A stretch of DNA of 64,000 nucleotides from a virus: the IMG/VR virus record IMGVR_UViG_3300042197_000731, positions 32,001 through 96,000 of that record; one strand, given 5' to 3'. Below, one piece after another: positions 1 to 41,669 of this stretch (position 1 is the stretch's first letter; every line of letters starts with the position of its first letter). A program made the position numbers and the translations under genes. Below the pieces are notes generated by a model that saw only the letters and a program-made list of their open reading frames with translations, was not told the DNA's origin and did not search any database.

Positions 1-3000
1 GATTTACAAATAGAAAATCAATCCGGTATAATGTTACAACATAGTGCTCCTGTAACATTTGCTAATATGTTTCTCAATAGTGATAAATTCAATGCGATAA
101 ATGGCATTCAATATGCTCAAAGTGAATATAATAAATTCAAAAGTAAATTTTTAAATCTGGCTGGATTAATACCTATAACTGAGGCTGGAAACGTAGAAAG
201 TGCCGTAAACTATATTCTAAAAAATATAAATCAAGTTAAAAATTCTACGTTTCCATGGTTTTATAGTGATATGGTAGCATATCAAGGAACAAGAAATGTA
301 ATTAATTATAACATTTTTAATCCACTACAAAGATCATATGAAATAACAAATATTTTTACACTAACAGAAATAACAAATAAATCAATTCTGATTTATCTGA
401 ATAAAGTACAATTAGTATATGGTAGAGATTATCTATTTTTGGCAGATTCAACTGGTGTACAGATAACTGATAGCGTAACATTGCAGATAGGTGATAAATT
501 AACCATTATTGAATATGATAGCACTGATGGTTCTTATATACCAGAAACACCTACAAAATTAGGTCTATATCCTAAGTTTATACCAGAAATTTATGTTGAT
601 CGTACATATACAACACCGCAGACTTTACTACGTGGTCACGACGGTAGTGTAATGCCAATATTTGGTGATCTACGTGATAATCTATTGCTGGAACTAGAAA
701 AGAGAATATACAATAATCTGAAGGTAGAATACAGCGACAAGTTAGTTAATATATTTGAAACTATACCAGGTAAGTTTAGAAATACAGGATACAGATTAAC
801 AGAATTTAATGCCGCCCTAGCAGCATCATATCTCCGCTGGACTTCTCAAAATAACCTGGACTATGTAAACAACGATACATTCCAGAATGATAACGCATTC
901 TCGTATAATTATGCCCTGGCATACGATAAAATCAATAATGAATTGTTACCCGGTTCATGGAGAGCGTGTTATCAGTATTTTTATGATTGTCAAGATCCTA
1001 ATGTAAGTCCATGGAAAATGTTAGGTTTTACTATCAAGCCTGATTGGTGGGAAGAGGTTTATGGCCCAGCGCCGTACACTTCTGGAAACAGTATTCTTTG
1101 GACTGATTTAGAGAATGGATATATTGCTCGTGGTGATCGTGCTGGCTTTGATCCACTGTTTAAGCGTCCTGGTCTATCAGCAATAATCCCAGTTAACGAG
1201 AACGGTAAACTTATTCCGCCACTGCCGCTGTTAACTAACAAATTTGATGCTAACACATTCAATCGCTCCTGGAATATAGGTCAATTTAGCCCAACTGAAA
1301 CCGCATGGAGAAACAGTAGTGATTATCCATTTGCTCTACAGATAATAATGGCTATATTTAAACCGGCAAAGTATTTTGCTTACGGTATTAATACAAACAA
1401 ATATAGATACAATGTAGAATTGGATCAGTATTTAATTGCTGGAACCAACAATAGAATAACGCAAGATGATATTGATATTAATGGTTACGTAGAAAATGGC
1501 ATTGTTGTTCGCGCAACTGGTTATTTAAACTATATTACTGATTACTTGACTGGTTTAGGTATTTTAGATAAATCTGGATTATATAATTTTATCAGAGATT
1601 ATAGCGTTCAATTGAGTTATAGATTAGCGGGCTATAGCGATAAGAGTTTCTTAAAAATATTAGCAGAACAATATAGTCCTACCAGCACCAATGATAGTAT
1701 TCTAATACCAGATGGTGATTATGATTTAGTTATTAACAAATCTACACCAATATTAAATGTTAGATATAGCGGTGTTATAATTGAAAAAGTTGCTGCTGGA
1801 TTCAAAATATCTGGTTACGATAAAAATAGACCATATTTTAGTGTAATACCTCCAGATAGTAATGGCAAGTACATCACTATAAAAATACTAGATGCTACTT
1901 TAAACTATTACACTGAGTATACAAATATAAAAATTAATATACCATATGATACTGTTTTTACAAATACACAGCAGGTATCTAATTTCCTATCTGGCTATGG
2001 TAGATATTTACAATTACAGGGATTGTTATTTAACGATTATGATGGTAGTTTAAAACAAATAAAAAATTGGGAGTTAAGTACTAGAGAATTTTTAACATGG
2101 GTACAACAAGGTTGGAAAGTTAATAATTTGATAGCATTAAGTCCAGTAGGCAATGCCATTAAGTTTTTTAATCCATCCGCTATAGCAGATAAAATCCAAA
2201 ACTCTGTTTTCGGCAGCAAAGTTGTAAACAAAGATGGAAAAATTCTTAATTCTGATAGATATTCAGTTCTGCGTGACGGTAATAATTTTGAATTACGTAT
2301 TTTAAATCAAAAAGATTTGATAGGCTATCTTGAAATAGACTTAGTACAGAATGAACATAGTTTGATATTCAATAATAATACTGTTTTCAACGATGTGATT
2401 TATAACCCTATAATGGGTCAAAGACAGTACAGGTTAAAAGTTGTTGGAAAACGAACCGCTGAGTGGAATGGTTCAGTATATGCGCCAGGCTTTGTTTATA
2501 ATTCAAATATAGTTCAGCAGTGGTTACCTGGTGTTGATTACATGAAGGGCGATTTAGTTGATTTCAAAGGTTTCTATTACAGTTCCATACAGAATTTACC
2601 AGCAACATCTGAATTCAAGTTTAGTGATTGGTCACCCGTAGATAAGAACAAAATAAAAACTGGTCTATTAAGTAATTTCGCAAGAAATGCCGAAATAATA
2701 GAAACATTTTATGATGTGAATCAAGTTAATTTAGAAAGTGATTTTGATCTATATGCTCTATCATTAATAGGTTATAAAAATAGAGATTACTTAAACAACA
2801 TAGGCCTTGATGATGTTTCTCAAGTTAAATTCTATCAGGGATTTATCAAAGAGAAAGGAACAATTAATTCTATAAATGCTCTTGCGAATGTTGTTGTAAA
2901 TCAGCAACAATCCCAGGTTTCAATGTATGAAGATTGGGCATTTAGGGTTGGCACTTATGGTAGCACTGATATTAATAGATATGTTGAATTAGTATTAGAT

Positions 3001-31583: not shown

Positions 31584-32029
31584 ATTACATCTTTGTATGT
31601 TCTGTATCTTTTTATTTCACGCACGACATTAAAACTGACATTATAATCATCTGCTATTTCTTTCATCAAGCGTGAGTCATTTCTTATTGACCTTACATCA
31701 TTCTCTGACAGCGTTCGTTCTTTATATTTGTGATTACGTTTTTTATTATACATATCACGCACATTGTCTAAATGAGTTCCTAAAAATAAATGTTCTGGAT
31801 TTACACACAGTCTGTTGTCGCATTTATGACACACATAAAAATTATCAAGGATCATTCCAGACATTTCAGCGGAAAGTCTATGTGCTTTTACAGATTTTCC
31901 ATTATATGAAAAAGCACCATATCCAGTAGCATATCTTCCAGCAGTCCATTCCCAGCAACCATTAGATGTGTTTTTGTTTACTTTTTCCCAAAATCTTTGT
32001 TCTAAGTTTATTGATTTACGGCCAGCCAT
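31580..32029 (-). CDS. HNH homing endonuclease
   Basis: RFWEKV, CWEW, GYG.F, AHR and VCHKCDNRLCVNPEHLFLGTHLDNVRD. Confidence 0.9.
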   Translation of the reverse strand: MAGRKSINLEQRFWEKVNKNTSNGCWEWTAGRYATGYGAFSYNGKSVKAHRLSAEMSGMILDNFYVCHKCDNRLCVNPEHLFLGTHLDNVRDMYNKKRNHKYKERTLSENDVRSIRNDSRLMKEIADDYNVSFNVVREIKRYRTYKDVI

Positions 32030-33113: not shown

Positions 33114-34145
33114 TTATTCAAAAACGAAAAGATCACTAAGAACTTCGTCAACTGCGGTAAGTTCACGTAAATTCCAGTTTAGTACGGATAGTAAGTTATC
33201 AATCTTTTCGTCAACCAGAGTTGTTTCCATGCTTGCGTCATCAAATGGCAAAGATAGGAACCATTCTGGCAATCGTAGTTCATCGGTTGGATATGCGATA
33301 CTAGTAAAGTTGTGTGGGTTTGATTTTAGTTTACAAATAACAACACGCATACCATCAACGATCTGCATACTGTAATTATCATTGTTTATCTGTCTTAGAT
33401 AATTCCAGTTCAGGCTAGCCCGGACATGTCCGGGCATATTGGTATCACCATCATCTTCGTCACTGACAAAGATTGACTTGTCCATTTTTTTGGCATTTGA
33501 TTTTGCTTTGTTAGCATATAGTGTTAGATTGTTGACGGATTTCGGACTGCCCTTCATCCAACTGCTCATTTCTGATAGTTCTTTTTTGAATGTTTTTATC
33601 TTTTCAATAATGAATTCTTTTTCTTTACCTGCTAGAACTTCCTCTAACACTTCCATGAGAAATACTTGAACAAATTTTGGAGTATCACTGCGTTTGAGAT
33701 CAAGTCCCATGGCCTTGATTTTACCACGTTTACCATTAACATCTAATCTTTTGCCTTCTTTATCATAGATGTTTACAGCATAGCGTTTCTTCGTGATGAA
33801 TAGAGCACGATCACCTACTAACTCTCGGCCTGCCTTAATAATTTCACCGTTCTTTGTTGGACAATGAAATGCTTGCTTCATAAATTGTGGGAAACTGGCG
33901 TTTGTGTCGTTGGCAAGATCATCGTAAATTTCAATGGCTCGTTCCTTTGACCAATCTAGGGCATCAATTGCGTTACGTTCTTTGATAATAGGCCAAATGC
34001 TGTAATAAATGGAGTCGGTATTATGAACCAATATATCATTGGCAAAAAAATAAGGATCAGCATCCTCTATGCTAAGATCGTATACGTAATCATCTACTTC
34101 TCCTAAACACTCTACTGAATTTACTTTTGTCCATTCTGCATCCAT
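33114..34145 (-). CDS. Family B DNA polymerase, C-terminal part, preceded by the split-intein C half
   Basis: The first 42 aa end in VYDLSI...FFANDILVHN and are followed by TDS, KKRYA and GLDLKRSDTP. Confidence 0.93.
   Translation of the reverse strand: MDAEWTKVNSVECLGEVDDYVYDLSIEDADPYFFANDILVHNTDSIYYSIWPIIKERNAIDALDWSKERAIEIYDDLANDTNASFPQFMKQAFHCPTKNGEIIKAGRELVGDRALFITKKRYAVNIYDKEGKRLDVNGKRGKIKAMGLDLKRSDTPKFVQVFLMEVLEEVLAGKEKEFIIEKIKTFKKELSEMSSWMKGSPKSVNNLTLYANKAKSNAKKMDKSIFVSDEDDGDTNMPGHVRASLNWNYLRQINNDNYSMQIVDGMRVVICKLKSNPHNFTSIAYPTDELRLPEWFLSLPFDDASMETTLVDEKIDNLLSVLNWNLRELTAVDEVLSDLFVFE
34020..34145 (-). mobile_element. Split intein, C-terminal fragment (42 aa)
   Basis: Blocks F/G: YVYDLSIE..PYFFANDILVHN, followed by Thr+1. 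Confidence 0.9.
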
Positions 34146-35083
34146 TGTACTACCCTTTCTATTGTTTCAATTTTGTTTTTTCTAAATTCATTTTCCCATA
34201 TAACCATTACTCTAAATCCGTGATTTATTGCCGTTTGTATTTTCTTTTTGTCTTTTTCCCACACATCTTTTGCCAACATATTGCCTATAATTTTTCTGTC
34301 TTCTTTGTATATAGAAGGATTACAGTGCCAATAATCTCCATTGAATTCTATTATACAGTTTTTGTGTTTTATATCAAATATAACGTATGAATTTAATTCG
34401 TGACACCATTTTCCATAAGGTTTATTAAATGTAGTATGCTCTAGACGACCAACTTTTTCTTCTAACATTGTTGTGAATTCTTTTTCTAAGTTTGAACCTA
34501 AATTTTCTTTTGATTCTTTTCTAGATAAAATCACTTCAACGGCTTCGTCTAGCGTAATTTGAAGTTTGTTAGCGATTGCTATTGCCGAATTAGAGGTTCC
34601 TTTTTGTTTGTTATACTCTAAATATTTTATTGATCCAAGATCTTGGCCATACTTTTCAATAAAATACTCTTTAGTATTACTGTATGCCTGTTTATCACAA
34701 TATTCATGCCATTTTCTCAAGCCTTCTTTTTCGCCGTATCTTTCAATACATTTTTTTAAAGTAATAGATCTGCTAGCATTATATTCTAAAAATTGTTTCT
34801 CAGACCATCCATATTTTTCTTTTTTATATTCATATGTATTAGAGTATGCTTGCTTTTCGCAATATGATTTCCAACGTGCTTCTCCCTCGATCTGTCCATA
34901 CTTTTTAACCATATTTTCGTATGTTAAAGTTGTTTTTTTTGCTAAACTAGGATCAACTAACATAGCATTTGGATATTTTTTTAGATATTCGTCACACGTC
35001 TTAATTTTGCCAGAACATTTATATCTTAGATGTGTCCATTGAATTCTGTTAACTTCTTTGCTACATTCTAAACATTTAATCAT
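34121..35083 (-). CDS. Free-standing Vsr/EDxHD-like homing endonuclease
   Basis: IIEFNGDYWHCNP...DKKK...VIWENE, an N-terminal CxxC..H motif and repeated KYG..EG..W..YC.KQAYSNT units. It sits between the intein halves. Confidence 0.82.
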   Translation of the reverse strand: MIKCLECSKEVNRIQWTHLRYKCSGKIKTCDEYLKKYPNAMLVDPSLAKKTTLTYENMVKKYGQIEGEARWKSYCEKQAYSNTYEYKKEKYGWSEKQFLEYNASRSITLKKCIERYGEKEGLRKWHEYCDKQAYSNTKEYFIEKYGQDLGSIKYLEYNKQKGTSNSAIAIANKLQITLDEAVEVILSRKESKENLGSNLEKEFTTMLEEKVGRLEHTTFNKPYGKWCHELNSYVIFDIKHKNCIIEFNGDYWHCNPSIYKEDRKIIGNMLAKDVWEKDKKKIQTAINHGFRVMVIWENEFRKNKIETIERVVQWMQNGQK

Positions 35084-35115
35084 ATGCTGATACTCCTATC
35101 AGCATATATTTATTA

Positions 35116-37503
35116 TTATTTTGGAGAAAACGTTATTATTAAATCATTTTCTTTGATTTCATTGGGTTTGACTTCGGTCAAAAACCCATCTCTGTCTACG
35201 ATTAAACTATGATCTTCTGTTACTGTTACTTGCTTTCCATTTTTGGTAGTTATACGATAAAGTTTCTTTTTTGTTTTATGCCGCATAACATAACTGATTG
35301 AATAAGCATTGGGTTCCATTTGTTCAGCACTAAATCCAAGAACTTTAGTTTCGTTCCAAACTCCGTATTCTTTCTCGCCTACTTTTGAATGTTCTAGGCA
35401 ATTCGCATATAAACTAGCAATAGTCATATCACCATCAGATGTTCTTATAATAGAATCTCCCGTAACACTGTCGCCATAAATTACTGCTTTGCCCGTTAAA
35501 TCATACTCGCCCGTTACAAGTTCGTTTAACTTAGAACCCATATGTTTTACGATTTGTCTACCGGATAGTGTAACGCTCTGGCCTATACGCAAATCATAGA
35601 ACCTACAATGCTTGTTAAGCAGGGCTCCGTATGCTGAATTAAGCAAAATTTTACGCACTAATTGACGTTTGTCCAGAAATTCTTGTTCTTCTTTGGTTTT
35701 TGCTTGCTTTAGTTTTGCTTGAACTTGTTTCCGTTCACTGTACCATCTGGTAAGTAGGCCCGGGATAACGCCTTCTTGTCCATAGGTGAATATAGTGCCA
35801 TTAGCACTTAGCATCCATGGCTGATTGCTATCGTAGATCATATGCCAAATTTCAGCAGCACTGTATGTATCACTGACGCCACGCTCCCAATCTATAGTGA
35901 TTAGAGTATCGCGTTCTTGGTTCATAACGGCGGTGTATTCAAGAGAGCCAAATAAGCCTTCCCATAGAATTGGACCTGTGATATCCTTAGCAGTTTTGTT
36001 TCTTTTTTCTCGTGCTAATCTGGTCTTCTTATCTTCAATATATTGTTCTGTTAAGGTTTGTCTGAGTTGTCCAACGATTGTTTCTGGTGCCATGTTAATA
36101 GCGCGGATAACTGACGGGTATAGACTGTTGATGTCGCACGCCGCGACCCACTCGTGCATACCCCTTTTGGGCGTAGCAACAAAGGCACCGGCGGCAGTGA
36201 TATCTTCTTCGTCATCATCTTCTTCATAAATTTCATCCTTAAGGTCAATTGTTTTGTTTTGAACGATTAGATTTCTATGATGGGCTTCATTAATAACAGC
36301 CTGCTCAATCATGGCCACGCTACCCATAACTGTTTTTAGCAGTACGGTATTTTCGTGAGCAAGTTGATTTGCCAGATCCAAGAATTTTAACTTGGCATGA
36401 ATTTTGTATACTAGTAGTGTGTCTTGGCGGTTATATTCAATGAATTTTCGCCAGTCACGATTGAACAATTGATCTAGTGTGCCTTCGTATTGAGTTTTGT
36501 TTTCTCCTACTTCCATTTCACCGATGTAGTCAAGTTTATAACTATGTCGTTGCTCGTAGTTATACTTCTTGTACAGTTGTAGATAGTCCATATGAACACG
36601 ACCAACTAGTTCATATGTAGTTTCTGTTTTGCCAAACTTGTTGATAATTTTTTGTCTGGGATGTTGATCAAATAAGCAAAATCTACGGGTATCGTTCTTG
36701 CTCATGACCCTGGTTACTCTATTAACCATATAAGGTATATCGTAACTCTCACTGTTCCAGCCAGTAAGCACATCAGCATCATCAATTAAGGCAAAGAAAG
36801 TCTCAAACATATCCACCTCATTGTCGAAGATGAATACATTATCAAAATCTTTTACCAATTCTTTTGCTGTATCAGCATCAATATGTGCGGGAGGAATACA
36901 CAATGTAACTAACTGTTCCAGCCAATCTAGATATAAGGTGATAGCCGTGACATCATTGAATGGATCTGTAGTAGGCGCAAATCCAGGGCCGAGTTTTAGA
37001 TACTTACATGTGTACACGCTATCCCAACGAAGATTGTCTGGATCGTATACTTCACAATCATCCTTATTAAGAAGATGACTGAGTTCATGTACCGTTATTT
37101 TTGATGTCGTGCGCTTACTCTTTGAACGAGTTTCTACGATATGCGAGTTTGGATACGCATATGGCTGCATATTGACTTCAATGTCGAAGAACACTGTATG
37201 TAGTTTAGGTGCTGGACGATCTAGATAATTATCTGCTAGACATCTGAAAACTGGATTAACATCACTCTCAAACAATCGCTTATTTGATAGAATACGTTTT
37301 TCTTTTTGAAATTCACTTAACTTTCTGGTGTTGAATTTACTCAGGGCATCACCGTAAACACTACGATACTTGCCCTTGGGATCTTCCCAATATAAAACAT
37401 AGTTCGTAGGATAATCCACATAGCGACGAACTCCACTATCGTCACGCTCAACTACGTGAATTATGTCCTTGTCTCGCTCAAGGACAGCATCTACATAACT
37501 CAT
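35116..37503 (-). CDS. Family B DNA polymerase, N-terminal part, ending in the split-intein N half
   Basis: ExoI FFDIEV, ExoII GWNSESYDIPY, ExoIII YNRQD, motif A DINSLYPS, motif B KILLNSAYG, then YGD followed by the intein. Confidence 0.94.
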   Translation of the reverse strand: MSYVDAVLERDKDIIHVVERDDSGVRRYVDYPTNYVLYWEDPKGKYRSVYGDALSKFNTRKLSEFQKEKRILSNKRLFESDVNPVFRCLADNYLDRPAPKLHTVFFDIEVNMQPYAYPNSHIVETRSKSKRTTSKITVHELSHLLNKDDCEVYDPDNLRWDSVYTCKYLKLGPGFAPTTDPFNDVTAITLYLDWLEQLVTLCIPPAHIDADTAKELVKDFDNVFIFDNEVDMFETFFALIDDADVLTGWNSESYDIPYMVNRVTRVMSKNDTRRFCLFDQHPRQKIINKFGKTETTYELVGRVHMDYLQLYKKYNYEQRHSYKLDYIGEMEVGENKTQYEGTLDQLFNRDWRKFIEYNRQDTLLVYKIHAKLKFLDLANQLAHENTVLLKTVMGSVAMIEQAVINEAHHRNLIVQNKTIDLKDEIYEEDDDEEDITAAGAFVATPKRGMHEWVAACDINSLYPSVIRAINMAPETIVGQLRQTLTEQYIEDKKTRLAREKRNKTAKDITGPILWEGLFGSLEYTAVMNQERDTLITIDWERGVSDTYSAAEIWHMIYDSNQPWMLSANGTIFTYGQEGVIPGLLTRWYSERKQVQAKLKQAKTKEEQEFLDKRQLVRKILLNSAYGALLNKHCRFYDLRIGQSVTLSGRQIVKHMGSKLNELVTGEYDLTGKAVIYGDSVTGDSIIRTSDGDMTIASLYANCLEHSKVGEKEYGVWNETKVLGFSAEQMEPNAYSISYVMRHKTKKKLYRITTKNGKQVTVTEDHSLIVDRDGFLTEVKPNEIKENDLIITFSPK
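35119..35469 (-). mobile_element. Split intein, N-terminal fragment (117 aa)
   Basis: Block A SVTGDSII and block B VTVTEDHSL, followed by a stop codon. Confidence 0.9.
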
Positions 37504-37769
37504 TACAGAGTTCGCCCTACTGTTTCTAGAATGGTATTTAGTTCTTCCATATCACGGTTTACTTCGGTCAACTTACTCTTATTTGCGACTTTGATAGCCT
37601 TCTTTAGAATAGATGGTTTGATCTCAAGTTCTTCTGCGATGGCTTTTACGGTCTCGTTAAGGCCAGCGTTTAGATCTTCTACTTCTTGAAGAACTTTGAT
37701 TCCCTCGTTGATTAATTGGCTAAGTTTGATTTTGGCTTCATGATTAAATGTTCGATTGTAGTCACTCAT
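37503..37769 (-). CDS. Putative dsDNA-binding protein (T4 DsbA-like)
   Basis: 88 aa with LNETVKAIAEELEIKPSILKKAIKVA and an AGGAG RBS. Confidence 0.65.
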   Translation of the reverse strand: MSDYNRTFNHEAKIKLSQLINEGIKVLQEVEDLNAGLNETVKAIAEELEIKPSILKKAIKVANKSKLTEVNRDMEELNTILETVGRTL

Positions 37770-37836
37770 GTGAACAGAACTCCTGATGTTAGATGGTTTG
37801 TGTATTGTACGCTGAAGTTGATCAATCAATCAACGA

Positions 37837-37928
37837 TTTTGGAAAAATGCCCCATTTTGAATAGAATGAGTAGCGAATTCATTGTACTATTGAGGTATGG
37901 GGCGACCTACTCGGTCCTAAGGCCAAGA
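37837..37928. ncRNA. Putative structured intergenic RNA element carrying 23S rRNA H69/H70-matching segments
   Basis: Nested stems TTTTGG/CCAAGA, GCCCCAT/ATGGGGC, AATAG/CTATT, AATGA/TCATT and GACC/GGTC, with loop GTAGCGAAT and segment CGGTCCTAAGG. Confidence 0.5.
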
Positions 37929-37931
37929 CTG

Positions 37932-38084
37932 TTAACCGATGATTAAGTATGTTAGATAATTAACATCGCTTTGATTTTCTAAATCATCAGTATATTCAAT
38001 TTTTTCTAAGACAAATTCTTTGCCTAGATTTTCTGTAGTATTTATAGTTTCTTCTGAGGTTGGAACAATATTAGATTCGTTCAT
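37932..38084 (-). CDS. Small acidic hypothetical protein (50 aa)
   Basis: Read by hand: MNESNIVPTSEETINTTENLGKEFVLEKIEYTDDLENQSDVNYLTYLIIG; it overlaps the dps stop. Confidence 0.45.
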   Translation of the reverse strand: MNESNIVPTSEETINTTENLGKEFVLEKIEYTDDLENQSDVNYLTYLIIG

Positions 38085-38514
38085 TCAGTGTAGCCTTTAA
38101 CATCCAACTATGTTTTTTATGGGCATCAATTCTATTCGCTAGGAAGTCACTTAATCCCACTTCGCCCTCACGTTCCGAAAGATCATATACCATTTTAAAG
38201 ATTTTAACGCACTTTTCACTATCTGAGAGTAGATCACTGATCATATCAAGGGCGGGTGGAACAATCAGTTCATCTTCTATTTGTGATAGCATACTAAGTC
38301 TTGTATAACTGCCAGGAGTATAACTTCCTAACTTTCTGATATTTTCAGCGAATGGATCTATGCTTTCAAAAACTTCTTCGTAAATTTTTCCGAATAGTTT
38401 GTGATACTGAGAAAAGTCATTTCCTTCAACATTCCAATGGTAAAAATGCGCTTTCAAATAGAAACTAAATTCAGTACTGAATGCTATTTTCATTGCTTTA
38501 ATTAACTCTTCCAT
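38071..38514 (-). CDS. dps: Dps/ferritin-like DNA protection protein
   Basis: HFYHWNVEG.DFSQYH.LF..IYEE, DPFAENIRKLG and HKKHSWML. Confidence 0.92.
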   Translation of the reverse strand: MEELIKAMKIAFSTEFSFYLKAHFYHWNVEGNDFSQYHKLFGKIYEEVFESIDPFAENIRKLGSYTPGSYTRLSMLSQIEDELIVPPALDMISDLLSDSEKCVKIFKMVYDLSEREGEVGLSDFLANRIDAHKKHSWMLKATLNERI

Positions 38515-41500
38515 TATTTACTCCGTGATTTTTTATTTATTCTTTGACTTTTAGATAGTGAGCCAACTGGACTTACGGGATTATCTACACCTATCGTTGC
38601 TGCTGATCCACTGTAACCTGCTTGATTTAACTCTTCTTCAGTGAGTGGTATACCAAATGCTCTAAATGCGTCTAATTTAGTGGAAGATGCGGAATCACCT
38701 GTAAGATACCAGCCACGAACATCACGGCGCATATTGAATTCGTTGATCAAGATTTTTTTATCTGTACCAACTACGTTGAAGTATAGATTTTCATTGGTCT
38801 TTGATTTACCCCAATTACTTGCGCCACGTTTACGGCATTTGACTAGAGCGCCACTGGCATACGCACTTGGCCATACCTTATAACGACTCTTGACTTTATA
38901 GTAGCAGGCATCCTTTTTCTCGGTCAACATATCAATATTGAACATAGGACCGCTACAGTGAGGACATGCTTCTTCTCTTAATGGAGAATTACTAACAAGT
39001 TTGTTTATTACTCGTAGTGTATTTGGACCTATTTTTCCATCTGGGTCTAGACCATTTTGACGCTGAAACTCTTTAATGGAATCAACATCAGTTAAGCCTA
39101 GTTTTTGTATATTTTGCCGTTGAGTAGTTTGTTTTCTAATATTGTAGTCGGTATTACTACGATCACCTCTTGTTGCGCCAGATAGATAATTGTAGTATTC
39201 TCCTACTTTCATATCACGAAAATGTGGGTTACCTGCAAGTAATTGCTTTCTTTTTGCTTCTACTTTCGCTGGATTTCTGGAATCGTTTGGATTACGACTT
39301 TTCCAAGCGTCCATAAGAGTATCAATAACTGCTTTGTTGGGATCATTGCGTACACCGTCATATATATCTACCGCACCACGACCTCCTACGGCGTGTGCCA
39401 TATATAAATTTACTTTGTCTGGCACGATGCCATTATTTTTTAGGACACTGGCATTTTCATTTGTTAATTCTTGTAGTAATCTATTTTGAGTTGCTTGATC
39501 AAATTTTGTAGTTTTTGGATCAATGCCTGCTTTTCTAGCAAGATTTGCTAGTGTGCTTCCGACAAACTGATATGCGCCTACTGCGTTAGCATTGCTGTGA
39601 TTATCAGATCTATACTTTTGAAAACGCATTACTTCATCAACGGACATGTCTGATAGTTTTTTAGCGCCGCCTAGATTTTCTTTACTCCATTGTTCGGCAG
39701 TGAGTAATGGTGCACCGACGTTTGGCCCCTTATTCGCTTTTACTATATTAACAATTTGGCCATTTTGTACAACATCGCCAAATGCTATATCTGGATTTTT
39801 TTGAGATTCCGCTTTACCGATAGCGTCTACTATTTCTTCAGGTGGCGGTAGGGGCATACGTTGAATAACTCCAGTACTGCCCGTATCGGGTCTGGATAAA
39901 TCAGCCTCACCAGCATATCTAAGTTGTTCGGGTGTTAAATTTGATCTTAATTCCTGTTGTTGAGCTGGCTCTTGTTGTACCCGAGCATTTTGTGAAGCCC
40001 TATTTGGCGCGGATTGTGATGGCGGTTTAATGGGTTCACTGATTGAAGGTTGTGATTGTGCTTGATCTTCAGCATCACGTTGAGCCTGGCTCATTTGTTG
40101 TCGTGGTTCAACTTTGATGGCGGATGCAGAGGTAGTACTTCCTGTAAATGGTGGAAGATTAAGAGTTGCTCCAGCAAATATTTTATTAGGATCTTTAATT
40201 TGCGGATTTAATCGCATTAACTCAGCAACAGTGACACCATTTTGTCTAGCAATTGTACTTAATGTATCACCACGTTCTATGGTCATTGAGTTTGGTATAG
40301 CAGGTTCACTGATTGAAAGTTGTGATTGAGATTGATCTTCAGCATCACGTTGAGCCTGACTCATTTGTTGATTTATTTTTGGTGTTTCTGGTCTTTGTGT
40401 AAAAGATGGTGTGGTGCCCATATCAACCGCTGATTGTGATGGTCTTGATTGTGCCGGAGTTGATGGCCCACCTGGCAATGATGGTAATGGTAAATCTCCC
40501 ATAGCAGGTGAAGAAGTACGATCATCATCAGCGCCGCCACCACTTAATGCGCTTGACGTGTCAGTTGATACACCAGTAGTTGGTGCTGATCTGACCGTTC
40601 CACTAGCAGTTGTTCCAGGTGGTCTGGCAATACTTGCTTCTGCTTTTTTAATTAATTCTTGATTTGTTACTTGTATACCGCCTGGATGATACCATTTGCC
40701 ATCACGCTTTGTTAAATTTCCACCCAAACGCGATAAGCCTTGATCAATGATTCCAAGATTTGCTTGTTGGCTCGGTGTTTCTGGCTGTCGGCCAAGATCT
40801 CTGGCAGTTGGCTCTGGTTGATAATATTGACCAGTTCCGGCACGAGGCATTGCGCCGCGCCTAGGTTCAGTTGCTTTTCTTTGAACTGAAGTTGATGCTG
40901 GTGTGACAGTAGTTGTAGGTGCTGCTGATTGTGTCCTACCGCCGGACTGTGCTGCTCTGTATTTTGCCCATTCCTCTGGTGGAGCATATATACTGGGTGT
41001 TCCAGGTTTTGGTTGATATGTAATAGTTGGTCCAGCGGCTAGTCTGTTTTTCGGAGCAGTAGTAGAACTGGGTTCTGGTTTAGGAGCAGCAGGTGAAGTG
41101 GCAACTCTTGTAGCAGCAGCCTGTCTAGCGGCAGCCCGAGCTGCAGCCGCAGGATCAACCTGTTGAACTGGAGATTGTACTCTAACTTCAGTTGATGAAG
41201 TTTGAGATCTGGCACCTGGACCAGGTCCGGCACCAACAGAGGCAGCACTTAATCTGTTTCTTTGTGCTTGTGCTGCGGAATCAGTGCCTGTCGCACGAGC
41301 TTTGTTTTCAAATACATTTTTTAATGTTATCTCTTGATCTTCTTTTACTTTGGTGCTAACATTTATTGCTGCTCCACGGCGTTCTGGATTAGGATCCTCA
41401 CGGCGTTTTTTACTAGCAGCACTGGCTCGACCTTTTTTACCTAGTGAGTGTGCTTTGCTGCGTGGCAAGCATTTTGGCTTACCTTCGCCCTCACTGCCAC

Positions 41501-41669
41501 GCGCACACTCTCCTCGAATTTTTCCATCAGGCCCAAATCTTACCCATTTTTCTTTGAACCATTTTCTGAGATTTTCGGTAATGACTTCACTTTCAACATC
41601 TTTGGCATGTATTAAATTTTCAGTGATGTTTACTTTTTTGTTACTGGAATAAAACTCATATAAATTCAT
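38514..41669 (-). CDS. Modular putative internal head/ejection polyprotein with LysM, lysozyme-like and peptidoglycan-binding domains
   Basis: LysM (IERGDTLSTIA...LNPQIKDPNKIFAGATLNLP), muramidase-like (GKAES...AVGAYQF...FDQATQ...YMAH) and PG-binding (EFQRQNGLDPDGKIGPNT) domains, plus short Cys modules bounded by xxE sites. Confidence 0.75.
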   Translation of the reverse strand: MNLYEFYSSNKKVNITENLIHAKDVESEVITENLRKWFKEKWVRFGPDGKIRGECARGSEGEGKPKCLPRSKAHSLGKKGRASAASKKRREDPNPERRGAAINVSTKVKEDQEITLKNVFENKARATGTDSAAQAQRNRLSAASVGAGPGPGARSQTSSTEVRVQSPVQQVDPAAAARAAARQAAATRVATSPAAPKPEPSSTTAPKNRLAAGPTITYQPKPGTPSIYAPPEEWAKYRAAQSGGRTQSAAPTTTVTPASTSVQRKATEPRRGAMPRAGTGQYYQPEPTARDLGRQPETPSQQANLGIIDQGLSRLGGNLTKRDGKWYHPGGIQVTNQELIKKAEASIARPPGTTASGTVRSAPTTGVSTDTSSALSGGGADDDRTSSPAMGDLPLPSLPGGPSTPAQSRPSQSAVDMGTTPSFTQRPETPKINQQMSQAQRDAEDQSQSQLSISEPAIPNSMTIERGDTLSTIARQNGVTVAELMRLNPQIKDPNKIFAGATLNLPPFTGSTTSASAIKVEPRQQMSQAQRDAEDQAQSQPSISEPIKPPSQSAPNRASQNARVQQEPAQQQELRSNLTPEQLRYAGEADLSRPDTGSTGVIQRMPLPPPEEIVDAIGKAESQKNPDIAFGDVVQNGQIVNIVKANKGPNVGAPLLTAEQWSKENLGGAKKLSDMSVDEVMRFQKYRSDNHSNANAVGAYQFVGSTLANLARKAGIDPKTTKFDQATQNRLLQELTNENASVLKNNGIVPDKVNLYMAHAVGGRGAVDIYDGVRNDPNKAVIDTLMDAWKSRNPNDSRNPAKVEAKRKQLLAGNPHFRDMKVGEYYNYLSGATRGDRSNTDYNIRKQTTQRQNIQKLGLTDVDSIKEFQRQNGLDPDGKIGPNTLRVINKLVSNSPLREEACPHCSGPMFNIDMLTEKKDACYYKVKSRYKVWPSAYASGALVKCRKRGASNWGKSKTNENLYFNVVGTDKKILINEFNMRRDVRGWYLTGDSASSTKLDAFRAFGIPLTEEELNQAGYSGSAATIGVDNPVSPVGSLSKSQRINKKSRSK
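40033..40370. repeat. 68-nt direct repeat pair flanking the LysM domain
   Basis: Copies at 40033-40100 and 40303-40370 with 4 mismatches, encoding QQMSQAQRDAEDQ(S/A)QSQ(L/P)SISEP. Confidence 0.9.

Follow-up and report, generated by a model that had tools for sequence, protein, structure and literature searches.

A widespread pseudoknotted RNA class of uncultured jumbo phages with conserved loops complementary to the helix 69/70 region of 23S ribosomal RNA

The stretch of 64,000 nucleotides (nt) analyzed here, in the following called the window, comprises positions 32,001 to 96,000 of the IMG/VR virus record IMGVR_UViG_3300042197_000731 and carries at 37848-37932, on its minus strand, a structured intergenic element of 85 nt. 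By sequence and predicted fold, it belongs, as an atypical representative, to a large family of structured RNAs of about 80-105 nt, for which uncultured jumbo phages (about 300-355 kb) provided about 170 loci. The family is a new RNA class, i.e., undescribed, widespread, well supported and without counterpart in Rfam. Two of its loops, in the following the A loop and the B loop, are complementary to adjacent blocks of 23S ribosomal RNA (rRNA), and this relation is almost certainly not accidental. A preliminary description of the window had noted two segments identical to 23S rRNA in swapped order; the observation is confirmed, and its interpretation is supported in part.

Members of the family were collected from loci anchored on relatives of a Dps-like protein encoded near the element, for which the best 80 of 373 relatives were used, and by motif pattern scans of IMG/VR, which returned at least 119, at least 120 and at least 120 stretches with 197 distinct instances among the matches listed. 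In the closest phages of the Dps-anchored loci, the element is 90-94% identical to that of the window. In distant phages, in which the downstream protein is 47-80% identical, both rRNA-matching motifs are exact and the surrounding stems altered. The covariance model R1, built from an alignment of 32 short-form members and comprising 78 positions, matches the element over its full length (37848-37932, minus strand; positions 1-78 of 78; 32.1 bits, E 8.3e-8). This score is low for the family, for which 45-95 bits are usual. No other match was obtained in the window at E<=10, and none elsewhere in the 123-kb record from which the window derives (CheckV completeness 35%). Applied to the collected loci, R1 gave 100 matches across 100 loci and 70 matches across 88 further loci, with 166 distinct sequences among the matches listed.

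The family fold is composed of a helix P1 with the A loop CCUUAGGACC, an H-type pseudoknot formed by the loop of P2 and the 3' tail, and a two-part helix P3 with the B loop AUUCGCUAC. In the first alignment, evaluated with the pseudoknotted structure, 90.6% of the cells in question were paired compared to 65.9% in shuffles, and the covariation score amounted to 0.621 compared to 0.082 at most with the partners slid. All six helices, the pseudoknot included, change on both sides. The joint change of P2 loop and tail is exemplified by the norm GGCUGCU/AGUGAGCA and the variants GGGUGCU/AGUGACCA, GGCCACU/AGUGUGGC, GCCCACU/AGUGUGGG and GUUCCCCG/GGGGA; in the clade of the window, the pair reads CGCCCCAU/AUGGGGC. 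As this pair of loop and tail is the family pseudoknot, the long hairpin GCCCCAT/ATGGGGC of the preliminary description corresponds to the pseudoknot helix of the family. Of the other helices described there, AATAG/CTATT and AATGA/TCATT persist as the two parts of P3, but GACC/GGTC and the outer TTTTGG/CCAAGA are not conserved in relatives. The window copy shows the features of the family throughout, namely the full-length match to R1, P1 with the loop CCUUAGGACC, the pseudoknot of P2 loop and tail, P3 with the loop AUUCGCUAC and the occurrence as a single copy behind a stop codon.

Of 133 distinct members sampled without recourse to the A motif, 117 carry it in exact form. The B loop AUUCGCUAC is present in 128 of 166 distinct members, the sampling of which in part used the B motif. 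A loop check on Dps-anchored loci gave 22 of 24 for each loop; it covered 42 of the 80 loci, 21 of them chosen for the A motif, and is not relied on. The test proposed in the preliminary description, whether the rRNA-matching segments stay invariant on covarying stems, came out in its favor: both segments are the best-conserved loops of the RNA, and the stems covary. The Rfam search proposed there yielded no family, with 0 matches over the window at the gathering thresholds of Rfam 15. At E<=1 over the loci of five members (canonical ones and that of Pseudomonas phage PA5oct), the sole match was unrelated and located elsewhere in locus L252. Likewise, ARAGORN found 0 genes for transfer RNA or transfer-messenger RNA in the window, and blastn searches against cultured phages with 1.3 kb around the element and with a canonical member gave no match.

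Two further features of the fold were noticed. Together with its closing pair, the P2 loop in its usual form, CGGCUGCUG, matches positions 519-527 of 16S rRNA (530 loop) as a perfect complement of 9 nt. The same loop pairs imperfectly with the tail of the RNA itself, and the P2 loop of the window clade is wholly different; owing to this difference and to the covariation of loop and tail, the complementarity to the 530 loop was set aside. In one clade (L010-L014, L026, L029 and L032; e.g., L011:4555-4633), the sigma-70-like promoter of the downstream gene, TTGACT-17-TATAAT, is built into both strands of P3, so that one stretch of DNA encodes an RNA helix as well as a promoter.

The strand on which the RNA functions can be read from the non-canonical pairs. 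Over 15 nested pairs in 99 distinct members, the strand in sense with the genes features G-U or U-G in 121 cells compared to 24 cells with A-C or C-A. As reading the opposite strand would turn the G-U cells into mismatches, the functional strand is the gene-sense strand, i.e., the minus strand of the window, and the loops are antisense to 23S rRNA rather than copies of it. The preliminary description had considered both strands. Its antisense reading of a minus-strand RNA is supported as a sequence relationship by the conservation of both segments as loops on covarying stems; the G-U statistics and the R1 match point to this strand as well, and the position it gave for this RNA, between minus-strand genes and just after a stop codon, holds as well, with a TAA 9 nt before the A motif.

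The complementarity to 23S rRNA becomes apparent when the family is considered as a whole. In its usual form ACCUUAGGACCG, the A loop is a perfect 12-nt complement of 1920-1931 of E. coli 23S rRNA, and UUCGCUACC, the B loop plus the C that closes it, complements the 9 nt of 1929-1937. Jointly, both loops complement 1920-1937, a span which we take to run from the 3' strand of helix 69 through the junction into the 5' strand of helix 70. In a small clade, the B loop is replaced by ACGCCAUUC, a perfect 9-nt complement of 1968-1976, presumably the opposite side of helix 70; within the region of 180 nt, a complement of 9 nt was attained by shuffled loops in 0.3-0.5% of trials. In addition, some members of this clade and others feature near-continuous antisense spans of 23-34 nt. 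The antisense alignments to 23S rRNA reach 1908-1941 in L238 (score 42), 1908-1930 in L232 (36) and 1909-1933 in L220 (36), compared to 19 +/- 2 and a maximum of 27 in shuffles. The hairpin inserted into P1 of the long forms is similar to an antisense copy of helix 69. Its loop side has the complement AGTTAC, which occurs in 15 of 111 inserts compared to 0.3% of shuffles; the shorter GTTAC is present in 49 of the 111. Since different clades extend the complementarity in differing directions, selection for pairing fits these observations better than the decay of a captured fragment. Beyond the element, the 10-mer of the A motif has zero sites on both strands of four out of four phage genomes, leaving no target within the phage, and E. 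coli K-12 harbors eight sites, seven of which we take to lie at the positions of the seven rrl genes, rrlH being the one confirmed. Host 23S rRNA is therefore the obvious partner. At the level of sequence, the segments that are conserved in the RNA are those complementary to the target, as would be expected of a trans-acting antisense RNA to 23S rRNA.

Accounting for these features, the RNA may act by base-pairing with host 23S rRNA, either nascent or in free 50S subunits, and thereby hold back or capture large subunits, a proposal to which we would assign close to even chances. The RNA would run in sense with the genes and form the 3' end of the transcription unit upstream, and the scaffold of P1, pseudoknot and P3 would display the two nearly invariant loops. 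These would pair with 1920-1937 in nascent rRNA or in the free 50S subunit, where helix 69 would be exposed and not locked in a bridge, with GGACCG as a possible toehold, and large subunits would be held back or captured in consequence. Transcription in the phage of the window, base-pairing to rRNA and any effect on ribosomes are all inferred from the genomic data. In its more specific form, i.e., that jumbo phages make a dedicated small RNA which hybridizes to the strand from helix 69 to helix 70 and blocks or captures large subunits, for example by keeping bridge B2a from forming or late 50S maturation from proceeding, the proposal falls slightly short of even chances.

Several points weigh against pairing with 23S rRNA. 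On its own, the rRNA match of the window copy is at chance level, as the preliminary description had cautioned for its 11-mer: CGGTCCTAAGG with at most one mismatch is expected 0.21 times per window and occurred at least once in 18 of 100 shuffles, and the best local alignment of the window element to antisense 23S rRNA scores 22 compared to 19.2 +/- 2.2 in shuffles. The match gains its meaning only at the family level, by coinciding with the invariant loops. For the loop classes AGUCGUGC (16 of 166 members) and CCGGGAAUCC, neither the E. coli region nor 24 distinct bacterial 23S rRNA fragments offered a significant complement; a bulged match to a lineage-specific ACGACU was too weak to count. 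The A-motif variants CCCUAGGACC (seven members) and CCUCGGGACC mismatch 23S rRNA and are compensated inside the RNA, CCCUA with UAGGG/UUGGGG and CCUCG with GAGG, and CCUUA of the long forms has a pairing partner further downstream, UAAG(G); thus, at least the 5' half of the A motif doubles as a stem strand. In the short forms, the motifs reside in closed loops of 12 nt and 9 nt, and full duplexes of 10 nt and 9 nt would presumably need P1 and the inner part of P3 to melt. The target itself is buried in mature 70S ribosomes. A scan of duplex energies of the whole element against 16S and 23S rRNA placed 23S 1896-1935 on top, yet 2 of 60 shuffles equaled it, so that this result is uninformative. 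The literature searched contains no description of the family RNA or of a phage or bacterial RNA antisense to rRNA. None of the RNA runs on record was listed as containing window positions 37500-38520, which is uninformative either way.

The main rival to pairing with 23S rRNA is that the element represents a 3'-end module of the upstream mRNA, a pseudoknot terminator or exonuclease block whose loops are read by a phage or host protein, and that the likeness to 23S rRNA is a relic of an old capture of ribosomal DNA (rDNA) or functionally irrelevant. This explanation is possible, although we consider it rather unlikely. It agrees with the position of the element directly behind stop codons, as 118 of 164 distinct members have, on the same strand, an open reading frame (ORF) of at least 40 amino acids (aa) that stops ahead of the A motif at a distance of 30 nt or less (mostly 4-13 nt), and with the promoters of the next gene located past the element, by which the element ends a transcription unit. 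The clade of the window and PA5oct have a U run or a separate terminator behind the element, as do 40 of 164 members, those with a T run directly past the tail. The internal pairing and compensation of part of the A motif and the two loop classes without rRNA match are likewise in its favor. However, 124 of 164 members lack a T run past the tail, and a generic terminator would neither be single-copy per genome of 350 kb nor hold loops of 10 nt and 9 nt nearly invariant amid drifting stems. A relic, in turn, would not gain a second, different loop that matches the other side of this rRNA helix by complementarity, and it would not lengthen its complementarity in different directions per clade.

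Far less probable is a cis-regulatory RNA, a translational operator or a riboswitch-like sensor, for the operon of the DsbA-like protein and family B DNA polymerase (PolB) or for the Dps-like gene. The element adjoins Dps-like, DsbA-like and PolB genes in many genomes, and models for such control are available from T4-type phages, in which pseudoknot and hairpin operators reside on the mRNAs of replication genes (gene 32, gene 43). Against this, a promoter with a very short leader lies between the element and the downstream gene in the window and many relatives, the downstream genes vary among genomes, and the element of PA5oct is located about 100 kb from PolB.

A function at the level of DNA, as an operator, a recombination cassette like the PeSL modules of T4 or a homing-endonuclease site resembling the I-CeuI site in rDNA, is very improbable. 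The intergenic position of the element, its proximity to promoters, the clade with a promoter inside P3 and the matched stretch of rDNA, which we assume to be a known homing site, could be cited in support. Still, the element is single-copy, and the strand asymmetry of G-U pairs, the covariation of the pseudoknot and constant loops on variable arms mark the element as a folded RNA and not as a site for a dimeric protein.

Hardly any weight can be given to a functional RNA from the plus strand, a mimic or decoy of rRNA for a factor or toxin recognizing helix 69/70, which the preliminary description had favored on the basis of three G-U pairs. Taken alone, the window copy indeed folds better on this strand, with a minimum free energy (MFE) of -32.8 kcal/mol (z -3.7) compared to -25.3 kcal/mol (z -2.0) for the minus-strand fold. 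Yet the family-wide excess of G-U pairs (121 vs. 24) lies on the other strand, R1 matches the minus strand only, and the element is co-oriented with the flanking genes, with its U runs on the minus strand. Least probable of all is a chance resemblance in a structured, otherwise ordinary spacer, which would suit the 11-mer and 8-mer match of the window copy, not beyond chance in itself, but not the conservation in the family, the covariation and the repeated independent complementarities. A splint, which the preliminary description had listed and which was considered here for RNA ligation, an external guide for RNase P and an internal guide of a group I intron were rejected by reasoning alone, as each would require the antisense blocks in another order; in the case of the splint, the permuted blocks could not form one continuous bridging strand.

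Should pairing with 23S rRNA be true, rRNA itself would be the direct target of a viral antisense RNA, for which the literature searched holds no description for bacteria or their viruses. This would constitute a new viral route to the translation machinery, RNA versus rRNA, at the helix of the central inter-subunit bridge, and at the same time a compact natural design for reaching an rRNA site that is buried and universally conserved. Should the idea of this target fail, a widespread, single-copy and well-supported class of pseudoknotted RNAs that is missing from Rfam and has at least one cultured carrier (PA5oct, Pseudomonas aeruginosa) would still be of interest.

Among known systems, CopA/CopT, RNA I/RNA II and CpxQ-type RNAs likewise combine a folded scaffold with short conserved antisense segments in hairpin loops, and small RNAs derived from 3' untranslated regions are likewise situated at the 3' end of an mRNA, where they share or abut its terminator. 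In contrast to the CopA and CpxQ types, the apparent target here is an rRNA and not an mRNA or a replication primer, and the element offers two loops for adjacent blocks on a pseudoknot scaffold with no known protein partner. Two loops for adjacent blocks, arranged in the 5'-to-3' order of the target, are also found in the pairing of exon- and intron-binding sites of group II introns (EBS2/EBS1-IBS2/IBS1); however, the element comprises 80-105 nt, without ribozyme core, reverse transcriptase or match to an intron family of Rfam. Small nucleolar RNAs (snoRNAs) and U3-type chaperone or guide RNAs of rRNA, from eukaryotes and archaea, are likewise small RNAs that pair with conserved rRNA segments. 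In the element, no C/D or H/ACA boxes were noticed, although no formal scan was made, and the order of the antisense blocks differs; RNAs of the snoRNA type are not known from bacteria or phages. The PeSL cassettes and the stable RNAs C and D of T4 likewise represent structured intergenic elements beside early promoters, but PeSL cassettes are present in many copies per genome, whereas the element occurs once in the 123-kb record and once or twice in complete genomes.

A distant likeness was encountered in a gap of phage ICP1, a stretch of 1,011 nt without ORF (NC_015157, 80,097-81,107) which starts on the gene strand directly past a stop codon. Its first segment is AAAGAAUUCA-CCUUACGACC-GUUAUGUUAAGG, and a hairpin with the loop ACUCGCUAC comes next, in the same order as in the element. 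The look-alike, which carries CCUUACGACC-GUUAU..UAAGG, is positioned at NC_015157.1 80,999-81,092 (L416:6000-6093, minus strand). Compared to the family, it reaches an R1 score of 10.9 bits (1.4-kb stretch searched), has no matching pseudoknot tail and features an A motif with a central mismatch. The most abundant transcript of ICP1, a non-coding RNA of about 800 nt, is reported to be located in this gap (Barth et al., 2020, PMC7567579). The stretch is a distant look-alike that appears to be highly expressed.

With regard to copy number, R1 found one copy in a complete genome of 355 kb with terminal repeats and one each in three partial records. A complete genome of 353 kb gave two matches, of which the second is weak (G002:C1:76943-77016, L257:1501-1574; 35.6 bits); its A motif is degenerate (CCUUAAACU), and P2 loop, B-like loop and tail are intact. 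In L026, two identical inverted copies of the RNA are located about 730 nt apart at 1732-1811 (plus strand) and 2540-2619 (minus strand), which could be an inverted duplication or an artefact of assembly.

As regards cultured phages, the member of PA5oct (MK797984.1) lies at 115,465-115,561 between EST35_0189 and EST35_0190. It scores 22.9 bits with R1 and is convincing by eye; the motifs CCUUAGGACC and GAUUCGCUACC are exact, and a separate canonical terminator is located right behind it. The PA5oct paper lists four non-coding RNAs, and the locus of the member is absent among them (Lood et al., 2020, PMC7318152). R1 gave no match in Atu_ph07, XaC1, Turkey5, T4, KP13-7 and SCTP-2, and a doubtful one of 15 bits in Phosso. 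A scan of 185,579 species genomes for the pattern of A and B motifs returned 97 stretches. R1 was run on 80 of these (L308-L387) and matched two (L383, L344), and a third, L391, looks like a member by eye. The contigs of these three true members look like binned phage DNA, and the remaining stretches represent 23S rDNA in antisense orientation or matches by chance. Accordingly, the family is not a cellular RNA.

In the window copy, all parts of the RNA can be assigned on the minus strand. P1 is formed by UCUU (37925-37928) and, according to the R1 alignment, GAGU (37909-37912); this helix, which covaries in the family, is weak here and includes one non-standard pair. The A loop CCUUAGGACC in between (37913-37922) is the complement of 23S 1921-1930. 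P2 consists of AGGU (37905-37908) and, again by the R1 alignment, ACCU (37893-37896), a helix that is 99.2% paired and covarying in the family, and encloses the loop CGCCCCAU (37897-37904; family norm GGCUGCU), which provides the 5' strand of the pseudoknot. The 5' side of P3 comprises AAUAG (outer), UAC and AAUGA (inner) at 37879-37891, and its 3' side, assigned by folding, UCAUU (inner) and CUAUU (outer) at 37860-37869; both P3 helices covary in the family. Between them lies the B loop AUUCGCUAC (37870-37878), of which UUCGCUAC is the complement of 23S 1930-1937. The tail AUGGGGC (37849-37855; family norm AGUGAGC) supplies the 3' strand of the pseudoknot, and its 7 bp with the loop portion GCCCCAU form a wholesale compensated variant of GGCUGCU/AGUGAGC. 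Immediately past this strand, A, U5 and CC follow at 37841-37848, and the U run is retained in close relatives; the upstream transcript probably has its 3' end, or is terminated intrinsically, here. By eye, a GC-rich helix of 7 bp encloses P3 ahead of A and U5, and a simple terminator scan with a loop limit of 8 nt made no call.

On the plus strand, the two rRNA-like pieces appear as GTAGCGAA at 37870-37877 and CGGTCCTAAGG at 37912-37922, and the hairpins GCCCCAT/ATGGGGC, AATAG/CTATT, AATGA/TCATT and GACC/GGTC with the outer TTTTGG/CCAAGA make up the fold of this strand, all of them present as the preliminary description had claimed. Its reading of 23S 1920-1942 is borne out by the sequence of E. 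coli rrlH, which is CGGTCCTAAGGTAGCGAAATTCC at these positions; the two pieces are contiguous in 23S rRNA and swapped in the element.

All genes around the element are encoded on the minus strand. Upstream, the ferritin/Dps-like gene (38071-38514) is followed by an ORF of 50 aa (37932-38084), whose TAA stop codon (37932-37934) is the one preceding the A motif. Downstream, a gene for a small DNA-binding or regulator-like protein of the T4 DsbA type (37503-37772; phrog_12534, phrog_639) overlaps the start of PolB, the N-terminal part of which extends over 35116-37503. For the downstream gene, a sigma-70-like promoter TTGATT-18-TACAAT is located past the RNA at 37804-37833 on the minus strand; its match to the consensus is only 9 of 12, and relatives feature stronger promoters, TTGACA-17-TATAAT, at the equivalent position.

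Besides, two of the neighboring genes show peculiarities of their own. PolB is fractured (33114-37503, minus strand): the part at 35116-37503 ends in an intein N-domain after YGDS (Pfam Intein_splicing), a free-standing ORF of 320 aa is located between the polymerase pieces at 34121-35083, and the part at 33114-34145 begins with an intein-C-like start ending in VHN, which is followed by TDS and the remainder of the polymerase. This arrangement resembles a split intein whose halves are separated by an endonuclease-like gene. Directly upstream of the Dps-like gene, a protein of 1051 aa (38514-41669, minus strand) features LysM and peptidoglycan-binding domains, and its middle part is long, of low complexity and rich in Ala, Pro, Ser, Thr and Gln.

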